64,000 nt of DNA, from positions 44,679-108,678 of the forward strand of contig JAHPZI010000015.1 of NCBI GenBank assembly GCA_019058295.1. The letters run 5' to 3'. The DNA is from Promethearchaeota archaeon (GTDB lineage Archaea; Asgardarchaeota; Lokiarchaeia; Sigyniarchaeales; SOKP01). The number at the start of each line of letters is the position of its first letter. Positions within the stretch are counted from its first letter, which is position 1. The notes below the pieces were generated by a model. It made no database searches. It saw nothing but the letters and a program-made list of their open reading frames with translations, and had not been told where the DNA came from. Of this stretch, positions 13,573-21,875 are shown one piece after another. Made by a program: the position numbers and the translations under genes.

Positions 13573-15312
13573 ATGAGTTCCACATATAACAAGATTTCAG
13601 AAGCGCTCTCTCAGAAATTTAAGGAAATTATTGGAGATGAATACTTTTTCTCAGAATACGAAATTAGATGGACGTATGCGTTTGGGGGTACAATTTTTAG
13701 AAAGGAATGGATACCCGATTTAATTTTATTGCCTCAAACTGTTGAACAGGTTTCTCAAATTTTAAAGTTAGCAAACGAGAATAAAATTCCCGTAACTCCA
13801 AGAGGAAGTGCTACCAGTCTATCCGGCGGTCCTATGACACCCTATAAAGGTATAAGTCTTGATCTAACTAAGATGAATAAAATTATTAAAATAGATATTG
13901 AGAACAACCTTGTAGAAACCGAAGCTGGCGTTATTTGTGATGATTTAAACGAAGAATTAAAATCTCATGGCTATTTCTTTCCTCCTGATCCTGGTTCAAG
14001 CTCAGTAGCGACAATTGGTGGGATGGTTGCTACGAATGCTGGTGGTATTCAGGCGTTTAAATATGGGGTTACAAAAAATTATGTTTTACATTTAGAAGTT
14101 GTCCTGCCTAATGGTAAAATAATGAATTTAGGCACAGACGTTTTAAAATCAGTATCTTCATATAATTTAAAAGACTTATTTGTAGGCTCTGAGGGAACGC
14201 TTGGAGTTATTACAAAAATTGGTCTTAGAATTAGACCTTTACCAAAAACACGAAAATTAGGATTATTTATTTTTGATAATGTAGAGGATCTACAGAAGGC
14301 TTCAATTGAGATTCGCAAGAATGGGATTATTCCCAATCTATTAGAATTTATGGATAAACTTATATTAGAAGCAGTGACCGATTATTTAGGAGGAGAATTC
14401 GTAGATTTCCCGAATGGATATGTTCTCTTAGCCGAAGTTGACGGAGATAATACTAAAGCGGTAGATGAAAACTTCTCTGTAATGTTTGATATAATTATCC
14501 AGAATAAACCTATTTTCCATAGAATTGCTAAAAACAGTGAGGAACGAGAAAGTTTGATTCTAGCCCGAAAGGCTAACCTTCCCGCTTTATCAAGAATAAG
14601 ACCAACAACATGTGTCGAAGATTGTACGATTAAATTATCAGATTTCGCAGATGTAATTAAAAAGATTGAGAAGATTCCTGAAAGTATTAATGCCAAAAAC
14701 ATGCTTGTCGCTACTATCTGCCATATGGAGGGTAATTTACATCCTACCTTCTTATTTAATGAAAATGATGAACAGGATGTAAAAGATTTTGAAAAAGCTA
14801 TTGATTATCTATATAAAGAGATTATTATTCCAGCTGGTGGCACACTCACGGGTGAACATGGGATCGGAAAAATAAAGACGCCTTTTCTCGAATTGGAGCA
14901 TGGTTCTGAGGTTGTGGATATAATGAGGCAAATTAAGGAATTGTTTGATCCAAATGGAATTTTAAACCCCGGGATCGGAAAGGGAGACCAAAGACCTTTA
15001 AAAAAAGTTAGCGTTCAGAGGATTCTGAAAAACCAATCAGATAAAATTTTAGAATTAAAATGTATGCGATGTGGCTTTTGTATAAGTACATGTGCTTCAA
15101 GAATTAATTATTTAATTGAGCCCTATAGTCCAAGAGGTCGATTGAGTATTTTGAATGGTCTTGTTCATGGTGAGATCGAATTAAATGAATTAATCGTAGA
15201 TATATTTCAAGCTTGCACACTTTGTGGACTCTGTTATGTAAAGTGTCCTGCAGGAGTTCAGACTCATGATATTTTTGAAAAAGCAAGAGAAATTATTCAT
15301 AAAAATATGTGA
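13573..15312 (+). CDS. FAD-linked D-2-hydroxyacid (probable D-lactate) dehydrogenase, GlcD/Dld family, fused to a 2x[4Fe-4S] domain
   Basis: PRGSATSLSGG, FPPDPGS, TIGGMVATNAGG, GSEGTLG, GNLHP, GEHGIG, LNPG. C-terminal CMRCGFCISTC and CTLCGLCYVKCP. Adjacent to larA. Confidence 0.85.
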   Translation: MSSTYNKISEALSQKFKEIIGDEYFFSEYEIRWTYAFGGTIFRKEWIPDLILLPQTVEQVSQILKLANENKIPVTPRGSATSLSGGPMTPYKGISLDLTKMNKIIKIDIENNLVETEAGVICDDLNEELKSHGYFFPPDPGSSSVATIGGMVATNAGGIQAFKYGVTKNYVLHLEVVLPNGKIMNLGTDVLKSVSSYNLKDLFVGSEGTLGVITKIGLRIRPLPKTRKLGLFIFDNVEDLQKASIEIRKNGIIPNLLEFMDKLILEAVTDYLGGEFVDFPNGYVLLAEVDGDNTKAVDENFSVMFDIIIQNKPIFHRIAKNSEERESLILARKANLPALSRIRPTTCVEDCTIKLSDFADVIKKIEKIPESINAKNMLVATICHMEGNLHPTFLFNENDEQDVKDFEKAIDYLYKEIIIPAGGTLTGEHGIGKIKTPFLELEHGSEVVDIMRQIKELFDPNGILNPGIGKGDQRPLKKVSVQRILKNQSDKILELKCMRCGFCISTCASRINYLIEPYSPRGRLSILNGLVHGEIELNELIVDIFQACTLCGLCYVKCPAGVQTHDIFEKAREIIHKNM

Positions 15313-15319
15313 GGAATGT

Positions 15320-16609
15320 ATGAGATTTGACTATGGAAAAAACGGCTTAGAAATCAATCTTGATCCATCTTGGAATGTCACTATCTTCCATCCAAAGAAA
15401 CAGAAGGTTATTGAAAATCCAGTTGACGTTATTAGAAATAAAATTAAAAACCCCATTGGGAGTTCTCCTTTACGTGATATTGTAAATCAAAAGATTTCTT
15501 CCCAGAAAGTTTGTATTGTAGTAAGTGATGCGACCCGACCAGTTCCTTCGCATATTATTTTAGAGGCTATAATTAAAGAATTAAACGAATATGGAATAGC
15601 AAAAGCACAGATCACTATATTAATTGCACTTGGATTGCATCGTCCAAGTAATAAAGATGAAATAGAACGAATAGTTGGTAAAAATATTTGGCGTCAATGG
15701 AGAATTAATGTACTACACCCTTCACCTAAAAATAGATTGCATGTTAAAGAATTAGGAAAAACGTCTAATGGATCTCCGATATATATTGATAAAGATTTCT
15801 ATGAAGCCGATCTCAAGATTCTAACTGGATATGTAGAACCGCATTTCTTTTTTGGCTTTTCAGGTGGTAGAAAGGCTTTAGTACCCGGAATTGCTGGTCA
15901 AAAAACTATTATGGACAATCATTCAGCAGAAAACATAGCCTCTCCTCATGCTCGATTCGGGATTTTTAAGGAAAATCCGTTACATCAACATGCTCTTGAA
16001 ATAGCTAAAAAAATGGAGATAGATTTTATAGTTAATGTATGTATCAATGAAGATCATAAAATTACCCAAGTAGCTGCTGGAGATTTAGAAAAAGCTCATG
16101 AAAATCTAGTTAATTATCAGTTAAAACATGTATTCAGAGAAATTTCCGAACCTTACGATATAGTAATATGTGGAAACGGAGGGTATCCTTTAGATCTCAA
16201 TTTGTATCAAGCGGTTAAAAGCATGGCTATTGGTGAGATGGCAGTCAAAGAAGGAGGAACAATTATTTCTGTGAATGAATGTTCTGAGGGTGTTGGAATA
16301 GGCCAAGAAAAGTTTAAGGAACTCATTTTTTCGGGTATGAATCCCAAGGAGATTTATGATAAGATTCTAAATAAAGAAATTATAGTCCCAGATCAATGGG
16401 AAATTCAAATTTTAGCAAGGGTATTAATGAAAGCTGAAATATATGTCATATCTAAGCTAAAAGAGAAAGAAATTGGAAAGATTGGATTAAAATATGCAAA
16501 ATCTGTCGAAGAGGCGATTAAATTAGGTTTAGAAAAACATGGTAGGGATGCCAAAATTCTGATCTTGCCAAATGGACCACAATTGCTTCCTGTATTGAAA
16601 AATAGGTAA
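15320..16609 (+). CDS. larA: Nickel-pincer (NPN)-dependent lactate racemase
   Basis: SDATRP, GLHR, EPHFFFGFSGGRK, NHS, GYPLDLNLYQAVK, DQW are the LarA catalytic and cofactor motifs. Likely start ATG 15320 (MRFDYG), 7 nt after the upstream stop, with GAGG upstream. Confidence 0.9.
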   Translation: MRFDYGKNGLEINLDPSWNVTIFHPKKQKVIENPVDVIRNKIKNPIGSSPLRDIVNQKISSQKVCIVVSDATRPVPSHIILEAIIKELNEYGIAKAQITILIALGLHRPSNKDEIERIVGKNIWRQWRINVLHPSPKNRLHVKELGKTSNGSPIYIDKDFYEADLKILTGYVEPHFFFGFSGGRKALVPGIAGQKTIMDNHSAENIASPHARFGIFKENPLHQHALEIAKKMEIDFIVNVCINEDHKITQVAAGDLEKAHENLVNYQLKHVFREISEPYDIVICGNGGYPLDLNLYQAVKSMAIGEMAVKEGGTIISVNECSEGVGIGQEKFKELIFSGMNPKEIYDKILNKEIIVPDQWEIQILARVLMKAEIYVISKLKEKEIGKIGLKYAKSVEEAIKLGLEKHGRDAKILILPNGPQLLPVLKNR

Positions 16610-20595: not shown

Positions 20596-20603
20596 TGGAT
20601 AAT

Positions 20604-21875
20604 TTAAGATTTATTTCGAGAATTAAGGATTCTATTCTCGTAGGATTCAATTTCTTTTATCCATTCTTTACCTATAGGAACATCGTTGCTTAAACAAAAG
20701 TAATCCCAGACGGCACCAAAGGGCAAGGTTTTGCTCTCCTCTAATAGTGCTAATCTTTGAAAATATTGCCCATTATCTTCATATTCTTGCAATAAATCTA
20801 TGGGCTGAAGCAACGCATATAAAATACTTTTTTGTGTGGCTCGTGCTCCAACTACCCAAGCACCTATACGGTTTATTGAAGCATCAAAAAAGTCTAAAGC
20901 GAGGTGAATTCGTTCCATTTGTCTACTTCTCACTATTTCTTCAGCCAGCTGAATAATTTCATCATTTAAAATCGGAACATGGTCACTGTCCCATCGAATT
21001 CCGCGACTGATATGTAAGAGTATTCCTTTAACAAATGGTAAAATCGCAGAAATCTTGTCACCTACCGATTCTGTTGGATGAAAATGTCCTGTGTCAATAG
21101 TGAGTAGTGTATTATTCGCTATCGCATAACCTAAATAAAATTCATGGCTCCCCACTACATAAGCTTCACTTCCTATCCCAAAGAGCTTGCCTTCTAAAGA
21201 ATCTATCATTTGAGAATCAGGATATTTCTTCTTTAAAATCTCATCTAATGATTCTTTGAGCAAGATTCGATGACCTGATCGATCAACAGGGATATCTTTC
21301 ATACCATCAGGGATCCAAAGATTATGGATACATGAGCTTCCTAACTGTTTTCCCATTTCAGCACTGATTTCCCGGCATTTTTTAACATGTTCAATCCAAA
21401 ATTCCCTAATCTCTTTGTTTTTACTGCTGAGGGTGAATCCATCATTAGATTTCGGATGGGAGAATAAAGTTGAATTAAAATCTAATTTAATATTAATATC
21501 TTTAGCCCAATCTATCCAGCTTTGAAAAGATTCTGGAGTAACCTCGTTTCTTTCAACAAATTTACCCCCAAAATCTCCATAAGATTCATGCAAGGAAAAT
21601 CGATGACTCCCTGGTACTAGAGAAAGTACTTTTTCGAAATCTTGCCGAAGTTCACTAATTGTCCTTGCTTTACCAGGGTAATTTCCTGTCGCTTGGATTC
21701 CTCCTCCTGAAATCTCAGCATTTGGTCTCTCAAAACCTCCTACATCATCACCCTGCCAACAAGGAATAGAAATTTGAATCTCTTTTAATTGATTAAGTAT
21801 TTTATCAGTATCAATACCGAATTCCAAATATTGTTTATTAGCATTGCTATAATATCTTTCAATCTTATCTTTCAA
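20604..21875 (-). CDS. rhaA: L-rhamnose isomerase
   Basis: CWQGDDVGGFE, GGIQATGNYPGKAR, WIPDGMKD, KLFGIGSE, GSHEFY, DTGHFHPTE, RWDSDHV, LDFFDASINR. Confidence 0.96.
   Translation of the reverse strand: MKDKIERYYSNANKQYLEFGIDTDKILNQLKEIQISIPCWQGDDVGGFERPNAEISGGGIQATGNYPGKARTISELRQDFEKVLSLVPGSHRFSLHESYGDFGGKFVERNEVTPESFQSWIDWAKDINIKLDFNSTLFSHPKSNDGFTLSSKNKEIREFWIEHVKKCREISAEMGKQLGSSCIHNLWIPDGMKDIPVDRSGHRILLKESLDEILKKKYPDSQMIDSLEGKLFGIGSEAYVVGSHEFYLGYAIANNTLLTIDTGHFHPTESVGDKISAILPFVKGILLHISRGIRWDSDHVPILNDEIIQLAEEIVRSRQMERIHLALDFFDASINRIGAWVVGARATQKSILYALLQPIDLLQEYEDNGQYFQRLALLEESKTLPFGAVWDYFCLSNDVPIGKEWIKEIESYENRILNSRNKS

Follow-up and report, generated by a model that had tools for sequence, protein, structure and literature searches.

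Here we examine a 64,000-nucleotide stretch of a Promethearchaeota archaeon genome (GCA_019058295.1, contig JAHPZI010000015.1; hereafter 'the window'), in which six contiguous genes at 13573-21875 encode a GlcD/LctD-like FAD/FeS enzyme (GlcD-FeS), the 2-hydroxyacid racemase LarA, a short class II aldolase (Ald2), an aldehyde:ferredoxin oxidoreductase (AOR), an FGGY sugar kinase and the L-rhamnose isomerase RhaA. The best explanation of this cluster, to which we would assign a probability of about 0.6, is that it joins a lower pathway for deoxyhexoses (module 1) to a general lactate module (module 2). Specifically, RhaA would isomerise L-rhamnose, as FucI would L-fucose in a sister genome and many relatives; the single RhaB-like kinase would yield the ketose-1-phosphate, and the single FucA-type aldolase would split this into dihydroxyacetone phosphate (DHAP) and L-lactaldehyde. 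A dedicated AOR encoded beside the aldolase would then oxidise lactaldehyde to L-lactate and reduce ferredoxin, a step that would replace the bacterial NAD-dependent AldA or the propanediol-forming FucO and would fit an H2/formate-releasing syntroph. LarA would bring L-lactate into equilibrium with D-lactate, which the FAD/FeS enzyme would oxidise to pyruvate, module 2 having presumably moved beside module 1 in the lineage of this genome and its sister, where it would carry AOR-made lactate on to pyruvate. The pathway up to L-lactate is well supported, and its continuation to pyruvate via LarA and GlcD-FeS, which derives from a single juxtaposition, is plausible. A broader proposal, to which we would give somewhat less than even odds, is that this Asgard AOR clade is a dedicated L-lactaldehyde:ferredoxin oxidoreductase tied to a promiscuous FucA-type aldolase, and that strictly anaerobic, syntrophic Lokiarchaeia fully oxidise L-rhamnose and L-fucose to pyruvate or acetate plus reduced ferredoxin or H2, with no propanediol sink.

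The evidence for module 1 centres on the AOR gene (17262..19058, minus strand, 598 aa), a candidate L-lactaldehyde:ferredoxin oxidoreductase, and the adjoining Ald2 gene (16621..17232, minus strand, 203 aa), a candidate L-rhamnulose-1-phosphate / L-fuculose-1-phosphate aldolase. When relatives of the AOR were sought in one genome per species (185,579 species), ten Asgard relatives at 55% identity or more were recovered, all ten with Ald2 just downstream; similarly, an AOR orthologue adjoins Ald2 in every one of 30 Ald2 loci sampled across the order. Thirty-two RhaA neighbourhoods were inspected, and in 13 of them, from at least three other genera, rhaA, AOR and Ald2 follow one another co-directionally with gaps of 15-140 bp (15-35 bp in genus g12), while rhaB and GH78 rhamnosidase genes are frequent neighbours of the pair, often within a few kb. 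Other genomes carry AOR-Ald2-fucI-GH29-GH29, with a GH78 gene on the opposite strand and no rhaA following the pair, and fucI in relatives scores 1070 bits vs a cut-off of 775. As the pair alternates between rhaA and fucI contexts, whose sole common product is L-lactaldehyde, it would represent the shared steps that make and remove this aldehyde. A preliminary description of the window, made from the sequence alone, had proposed a phosphorylative rhamnose pathway and a search for its synteny in relatives; rhamnose stands, as does the conserved association of AOR-Ald2 with rhaA and rhaB, but the scope was too narrow, since the fucI contexts point to fucose also, and GlcD-FeS with larA lies beside sugar genes in only two genomes, as discussed below.

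The association extends to gene content. Among 154 genomes of the order, Ald2 occurs with rhaA or fucI in 34 and alone in four (all four being incomplete genomes or partial matches), an isomerase gene occurs alone in six, and neither is present in 110. In genus g11 (54 genomes) eight are shared out of nine and nine, and in g12 (42 genomes) 12 out of 13 and 13. The relatives are not independent, and a Fisher p-value on this co-occurrence overstates the case; the counts within genera nevertheless show that Ald2 and isomerase genes were gained and lost jointly. Synteny, co-occurrence and the distinct AOR clade described below together strongly support the view that, in a lower pathway common to rhamnose and fucose, lactaldehyde is oxidised by the AOR, in agreement with the role first proposed for it. 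Phyletic distribution also bears on a biosynthetic alternative, in which the aldolase-AOR pair would supply L-lactate to the 2-phospho-L-lactate arm of coenzyme F420 (compare FucA and CofA in Methanocaldococcus). Although Ald2 resembles the methanogen FucA model and the genome encodes CofD above its cut-off, 129 of the family's 134 genomes encode CofD and only 31 of the 134 encode Ald2, so that most F420 makers lack the pair, and the pair instead tracks rhaA or fucI amid glycoside hydrolases, the kinase and transporters. On these phyletic grounds we reject F420-lactate biosynthesis, a disfavoured reading that we regard as extremely improbable.

In a tree of AORs (quick search, LG+G4, with long branches flagged among the paralogues), a check that had been called for at the outset, the 23 Asgard AORs linked to Ald2 form one clade (SH-aLRT 100), set apart from ten paralogues of the same genome and from a Cloacimonadota/Aminicenantes clade. 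Its sister (support 95) consists of two Chloroflexi AORs, each with an Ald2-like neighbour. Beside the closest bacterial AORs (44-47% identity; Cloacimonadota, Aminicenantes and others) we sought rha, fuc and Ald2 genes and found none, and the pairing with Ald2 is thus specific to the Asgard clade and the two Chloroflexi. The neighbours in that bacterial clade are of another kind, with a DeoC-family aldolase directly upstream of the Cloacimonadota AOR and the order AOR, ThiS-like, pyrimidine nucleoside phosphorylase, HAD in Aminicenantes (L087:9144-11755; L116:8796-12975), which suggests acetaldehyde from deoxyribose-5-phosphate as the substrate there. Two side observations concern these loci. 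First, a 305-310-aa open reading frame with no Pfam or NCBIfam match lies between AOR and Ald2 in three of the 30 sampled loci (L080:11889-12821, L117:11909-12826; g1-type). Second, one Chloroflexi locus (L089:1384-7543) has a Piwi-domain protein, a SIR2-like protein and a type I restriction R subunit upstream, and resembles a defence island.

Ald2 belongs to PF00596 (Aldolase_II), scores 186 bits on the archaeal aldolase model PRK08660 (cut-off 203) and 78 bits on FucA_Meth, and has Thermus thermophilus FucA (2fk5) as its top match in the Protein Data Bank (PDB). The alignment with 2fk5 keeps the HAH motif and the third histidine (the HxH...H zinc ligands), the catalytic glutamate (S-x-E) and the phosphate-binding G-N-x-S motif of the N-terminal part, and by these residues Ald2 is predicted to be a FucA-type class II zinc aldolase. 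No RhaD chain was among its PDB matches at E<=0.01, and at 203 aa vs about 274 aa for RhaD it stands outside the RhaD branch of the class; thus, of the RhaA/RhaB/RhaD set named in the preliminary description, RhaA and a RhaB-like kinase are borne out and RhaD is not. The genomic context supports Ald2 as a candidate for cleaving L-rhamnulose-1-phosphate and L-fuculose-1-phosphate to DHAP and L-lactaldehyde. Alternatively, Ald2 might belong elsewhere in the class II aldolase/adducin superfamily (for example as an epimerase, dehydratase or decarboxylase), with the AOR acting on a different aldehyde. Ald2 indeed passes no equivalog model and has weak matches to ribulose-5-phosphate 4-epimerase, MtnB and 3-oxo-tetronate-4-phosphate decarboxylase, and its Chloroflexi homologues lie in a non-sugar context; yet its best matches are the aldolases above, tblastn found no second class II aldolase paralogue in the genome, and a context of isomerase, 1-kinase and AOR requires a cleavage that releases an aldehyde. 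We consider this alternative highly improbable and retain the aldolase assignment.

The gene calls upstream of this cleavage are of unequal strength. RhaA (20604..21875, minus strand, 423 aa) clears two equivalog cut-offs (NF002203, 650 vs 572 bits; TIGR01748, 589 vs 585) and matches PF06134 with 603 bits over residues 4-420; of 400 Asgard genomes 40 have it, most of them in the same family and nearly all in the same order. The rhamnulokinase-like gene (19093..20595, plus strand, TTG start) encodes both the N- and C-terminal FGGY domains and has TIGR02627 as its best model. Its second-best model is fuculokinase (122 bits), its orthologues are found in rhaA-type and also in fucI-type loci, and the enzyme may double as a fuculokinase. 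Elsewhere, rhaA genes without AOR or Ald2 neighbours are paired with a Sde182-type nucleoside-hydrolase-like / cellulose-binding protein (L047:10720-12153, L048:10885-12324).

The cluster AOR has AFOR_N and AFOR_C domains (Pfam, 250 and 435 bits) and aligns end to end with Pyrococcus furiosus AOR (1aor), 9g7j and 9mqx at E about 1e-150, with the four [4Fe-4S] cysteines and the equivalents of Glu313 and His448 kept; on these features it is assigned to the AOR family, as a putative tungsten enzyme. The genome holds 12 AOR paralogues, three of them inside the window, and none of the 11 others is more than 37.5% identical to the AOR of the cluster. With so many copies a chance AOR neighbour would be conceivable in one genome, but conservation of the pair rules chance out. 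The two further paralogues in the window (44603-46405 and 53285-55030) show 31-37% identity to the cluster AOR. Two iron-dependent alcohol dehydrogenase (Fe-ADH) genes adjoin other AOR paralogues (G000:C22:102487-108129; G000:C8:40147-43181, where G000 is the genome analysed here), which suggests that each AOR paralogue is partnered with a particular aldehyde-generating enzyme. The C22 locus also contains two copies of a 378-aa Fer4-tailed protein family that recurs in the window at 24536-25672.

Several observations weigh against the scheme as a whole, those touching module 1 being gathered here and those touching module 2 taken up further on. One FucA-like enzyme would need to take both C4 epimers, rhamnulose-1-phosphate and fuculose-1-phosphate. 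Neither FucA nor RhaD of Escherichia coli is good at accepting both epimers. The kinase falls just below the cut-off of its best model (485 bits vs 528). AORs are broad in spectrum, and a conserved neighbour is therefore no proof of substrate specificity; the genome also encodes other candidates able to act on lactaldehyde, namely three Aldedh and three Fe-ADH genes, all away from the cluster. Both Chloroflexi pairs of AOR and Ald2-like genes adjoin a xanthine/uracil permease and an aminotransferase, with no sugar genes. Finally, the tungstate uptake genes expected from the preliminary description did not turn up: we found neither of the tungstate-binding proteins WtpA and TupA in the 79%-complete genome (ModA was not searched), and its single PBP_like_2 match is a LysR-type regulator. 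Given 12 AORs, some route of tungstate uptake must exist.

At the level of the locus, the domains and coordinates of the six open reading frames were confirmed within 13573-21875 (open reading frame list, Pfam, NCBIfam), and the contiguity first reported, with gaps of at most 34 bp, is exact: the five gaps are 7, 11, 29, 34 and 8 bp. The strands run + + - - + -, with GlcD-FeS and LarA pointing right, Ald2 and AOR left, the kinase right and RhaA left, so that the six genes are a cluster of four convergent or divergent transcription units and a single-operon reading fails. Gene order is identical in an independent sister metagenome-assembled genome (MAG), Promethearchaeota AMARA_1S (SDNY01000013; G168), a Lokiarchaeia-type Asgard MAG that is the closest public relative of the window; the shared arrangement rules out an assembly artefact. 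Protein identity between the two is 93-99% for the cluster neighbours and just 67% for LarA. In AMARA_1S the island includes a full L-fucose isomerase gene, fucI, immediately before GlcD-FeS, between an OYE gene and GlcD-FeS (G168:C38:7946-9745). The genome analysed here (3.2 Mb, 79% complete) has one copy each of Ald2, RhaA and RhaB, and fucI was not found anywhere in it, the corresponding gap between OYE and GlcD-FeS (13455-13572) measuring 118 bp.

Module 2 opens with GlcD-FeS (13573..15312, plus strand, 579 aa), a candidate D-lactate (2-hydroxyacid) dehydrogenase with FAD_binding_4 and FAD-oxidase_C domains (Pfam, 153 and 171 bits) and a C-terminal 2x[4Fe-4S] ferredoxin domain, and without a CCG domain. 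The closest solved relative of its GlcD part is Acetobacterium woodii LctD (7qh2_C, E 6e-73, 249 bits), and a mitochondrial D-lactate dehydrogenase also matches. LarA follows (15320..16609, plus strand, 429 aa); the open reading frame list starts it at 15266, overlapping GlcD-FeS, and we place the likely ATG at 15320, 7 bp past the GlcD-FeS stop. The predicted nickel-pincer (NPN) racemase has Lar_N and LarA_C domains, aligns with 2yjg, 9eid and 5huq, and by motif correspondence with 2yjg (Lactobacillus plantarum numbering) keeps the equivalents of the catalytic His108 and His174, the NPN-binding Lys184, the nickel ligand His200 and the carboxylate-binding Arg75, Gln295 and Lys298, along with those of Asp72 and Tyr294. 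The genes for NPN biosynthesis, whose absence would have spoken against a racemase, are all present above cut-off on contigs C14 and C30: LarC at 155 bits (cut-off 90), LarE at 259 (150) and LarB at 238 (175).

These gene identities make module 2 a candidate route from lactate to pyruvate, and its distribution shows it to be of wider use. Most genomes of the family have a LarA orthologue (56-70% identity). Of 29 related loci sampled, 21 place GlcD-FeS immediately before LarA, and the pair is usually flanked by TFIIB and, at its opposite end, by a DAO/BFD and Pyr_redox_2 operon. The two genes occur whether or not a genome carries rhaA or Ald2, and they adjoin Ald2 and AOR in this genome and AMARA_1S only, which amounts to one evolutionary event; GlcD-FeS-LarA is thus a general lactate (or 2-hydroxyacid) module and not a rhamnose gene set. 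Further points on the negative side are that LarA scores 440 bits on NF033504 against a cut-off of 460, that GlcD-FeS has neither a CCG domain nor an adjoining Etf as electron acceptor (EtfAB lie elsewhere in the genome), and that the lactate/pyruvate couple is too positive for ferredoxin reduction. A LutA (CCG) and LutB (LUD + Fer4) gene pair directly upstream of a pyruvate:ferredoxin oxidoreductase (POR) gene (G000:C23:62941-66104; L240) could moreover plausibly take L-lactate straight to pyruvate, and possibly on to acetyl-CoA, although no LutC was detected in the genome; a search for FMN-dependent L-lactate dehydrogenase (PF01070) gave weak partial matches, all to NMO-like paralogues. With LutA-LutB beside POR, L-lactate may not need racemisation. 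The argument that stereochemistry explains the racemase is therefore weakened, on account of the LutA-LutB-POR genes and of the lack, in GlcD-FeS and beside it, of a CCG domain and Etf as acceptor.

These observations give some weight to a reading in which the pair only detoxifies lactaldehyde, with L-lactate excreted or oxidised by LutAB, and in which GlcD-FeS and LarA have no part in this, serving DL-lactate (or a different 2-hydroxyacid) from the environment and lying here through a lineage-specific rearrangement that has no functional meaning. Besides the LutA-LutB-POR genes, the core-chromosome context of GlcD-FeS-LarA and the single juxtaposition, it would draw on the divergence of LarA from its sister copy, which marks the locus as recombinationally active, and on malate racemase models that score nearly as high on LarA (351-397 bits; LarAH6 397/500), as does the malate racemase Mar2 in the PDB comparison (244 bits vs 273 for LarA). 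Against this, the two modules abut within 11 bp, fucI of AMARA_1S lies on the far side of GlcD-FeS, so that the lactate module is embedded in the sugar island and not at its edge, and the product of module 1 is the substrate of module 2. We consider it unlikely, if by no means negligible, that the modules are unconnected, and we prefer the reading in which module 2 takes up the lactate of module 1.

A variant on the side of the substrate is that glycolaldehyde-yielding sugars are degraded (L-lyxose via RhaA/RhaB, D-arabinose via FucI), the AOR forming glycolate and the GlcD-like enzyme acting as a glycolate oxidase. The GlcD part does match the glycolate oxidase 9qgz nearly as well as LctD (238 vs 249 bits), the top NCBIfam model of GlcD-FeS is GlcD, far under its cut-off (375/568 bits, no equivalog cut-off being reached), and E. 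coli RhaA and FucI accept L-lyxose and D-arabinose. Glycolate is achiral, however, which would leave the paired LarA without a role, and the GH78 alpha-L-rhamnosidases and GH29 alpha-L-fucosidases adjoining the pair release 6-deoxyhexoses; this variant strikes us as very unlikely, and 6-deoxyhexoses remain the preferred substrates.

Side observations on module 2 concern its composition elsewhere and the history of LarA. An NMO-like FMN protein precedes LarA in genus g12, replacing GlcD-FeS (L219-L221, e.g. L219:8326-10606), genera g13 and g7 have the order NMO-GlcD-FeS-LarA, and the NMO-like protein may be part of the 2-hydroxyacid module. The window LarA (15320-16609) is 67% identical to its counterpart in AMARA_1S (G168:C38:11667-12941), no LarA in the order is more than 70% identical to it, and the difference looks like allele replacement by recombination. 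An apparent GlcD-FeS-LarA fusion in G217 (a 1017-aa open frame) was rejected, as it came from a read-through count; there are two open reading frames with a stop between.

The nearest well-known systems are the RhaA-RhaB-RhaD and FucI-FucK-FucA pathways of E. coli, with which the cluster shares an isomerase, a putative 1-kinase and a class II aldolase predicted to give DHAP and L-lactaldehyde. It differs in its archaeal host, in the lack of RhaD, in having one short FucA-type aldolase and one kinase apparently for both sugars, in genes that do not form one operon, and in the predicted passage of lactaldehyde to a ferredoxin-linked enzyme of the AOR family rather than to AldA or FucO. The textbook anaerobic fate of lactaldehyde is 1,2-propanediol excretion or processing in microcompartments. 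In Haloferax and Sulfolobus, L-rhamnose and L-fucose are degraded by an oxidative, non-phosphorylative route that ends in pyruvate plus lactate or lactaldehyde; to our knowledge, the archaeal deoxy-sugar routes characterised so far are solely of this kind. Such a route has no isomerase, kinase or aldolase, whereas the cluster would be phosphorylative in an archaeon.

On the side of the AOR, P. furiosus AOR (1aor), 9g7j, 9mqx and Eubacterium limosum WOR1 belong to the same two-domain fold family and have the FeS and active-site residues of the cluster AOR, the Asgard clade being about 45% or less identical to relatives of the solved enzymes. Characterised AORs are seen as scavengers of a broad range of aldehydes or are linked to the metabolism of peptides or lactate, in contrast to the Asgard clade, whose fixed position beside a sugar-phosphate aldolase and deoxyhexose genes implies one physiological substrate. 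Lactaldehyde is a known substrate within the family, as the tungsten enzyme WOR1 oxidises it among other aldehydes in vitro (PMC11725836). Furthermore, AORs in MAGs of Ca. Lernaellota were suggested to detoxify rhamnose-derived lactaldehyde (Williams et al., 2022, PMC9324843), in one line and from gene presence only, without synteny, a dedicated paralogue or aldolase pairing. The claim that the present combination had not been described therefore needs qualification: outside subscription journals, which our literature search did not cover, we found no paper joining rhamnose, lactaldehyde and aldehyde ferredoxin oxidoreductase, and none on rhamnose isomerase or catabolic lactaldehyde with Asgard archaea, but the action of an AOR on lactaldehyde from rhamnose had been suggested for Lernaellota. 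One paper, a review of Clostridia in biorefining, names both fucose isomerase and AOR.

Module 2 has its counterpart in the lct operons of acetogens and gut butyrate producers, in which, as here, a GlcD/LctD-type dehydrogenase is paired with LarA; both lactate enantiomers can be used there and, by prediction, here. In these operons, which pair a D-lactate dehydrogenase with LarA, loss of LarA accompanies inability to use L-lactate (PMC7702098); the preliminary description was right to call the pairing of GlcD-family dehydrogenases with LarA an established one, and the GlcD part is closest to LctD. The differences from lct are that EtfAB and a permease do not adjoin, that the enzyme ends in a 2x[4Fe-4S] tail of its own, without the CCG domains of Dld-II/GlcF-type enzymes, and that a sugar pathway lies alongside. 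Taken together, these comparisons leave the earlier interpretation partly supported and describe the cluster as a known pathway in a new form, a description inferential throughout and drawn from comparison of genomes.

If this reading is correct, one AOR clade would be given a specific physiological substrate and pathway, at a time when most AORs are still called broad aldehyde scavengers. It would also mean that lactaldehyde from either sugar, rhamnose or fucose, can be used oxidatively by anaerobes with ferredoxin as acceptor, and that Archaea have a phosphorylative route for deoxyhexoses, which under the broader proposal would be the first of its kind there. The Asgard archaea now in culture grow slowly as syntrophs on peptides and amino acids, and within the order those lineages that have been cultured appear to lack the AOR-Ald2 module. 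Since GH78 rhamnosidases, GH29 fucosidases and sugar transporters are likewise encoded in the family carrying the module, rhamnose, fucose and algal or plant fucoidan or rhamnan polymers could be tested as defined enrichment substrates for these hard-to-grow archaea. The wide occurrence of GlcD-FeS-LarA in the family, for its part, suggests that use of lactate as a substrate is common among Lokiarchaeia.

Two genes beyond the cluster deserve mention. First, an FAD-dependent oxidoreductase of the geranylgeranyl-reductase/FixC type (22070..23338, plus strand; Pfam DAO/Pyr_redox_2; TIGR02032 68 bits, under cut-off) has an 84% identical orthologue at the equivalent position in AMARA_1S, where it is a conserved neighbour of rhaA. 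Second, an MFS_2 / GPH-family glycoside:cation symporter (25780..27189, minus strand; PF13347 146 bits, TIGR00792 99 bits) has an 83% identical orthologue adjoining the cluster in AMARA_1S, and MFS_2 genes flank the AOR-Ald2 pair also in loci L117 and L064; it is a candidate importer of rhamnose, fucose or their glycosides. The window as a whole is low in GC (~32%) and also encodes Ras-family GTPases, a RING protein and ThiN.

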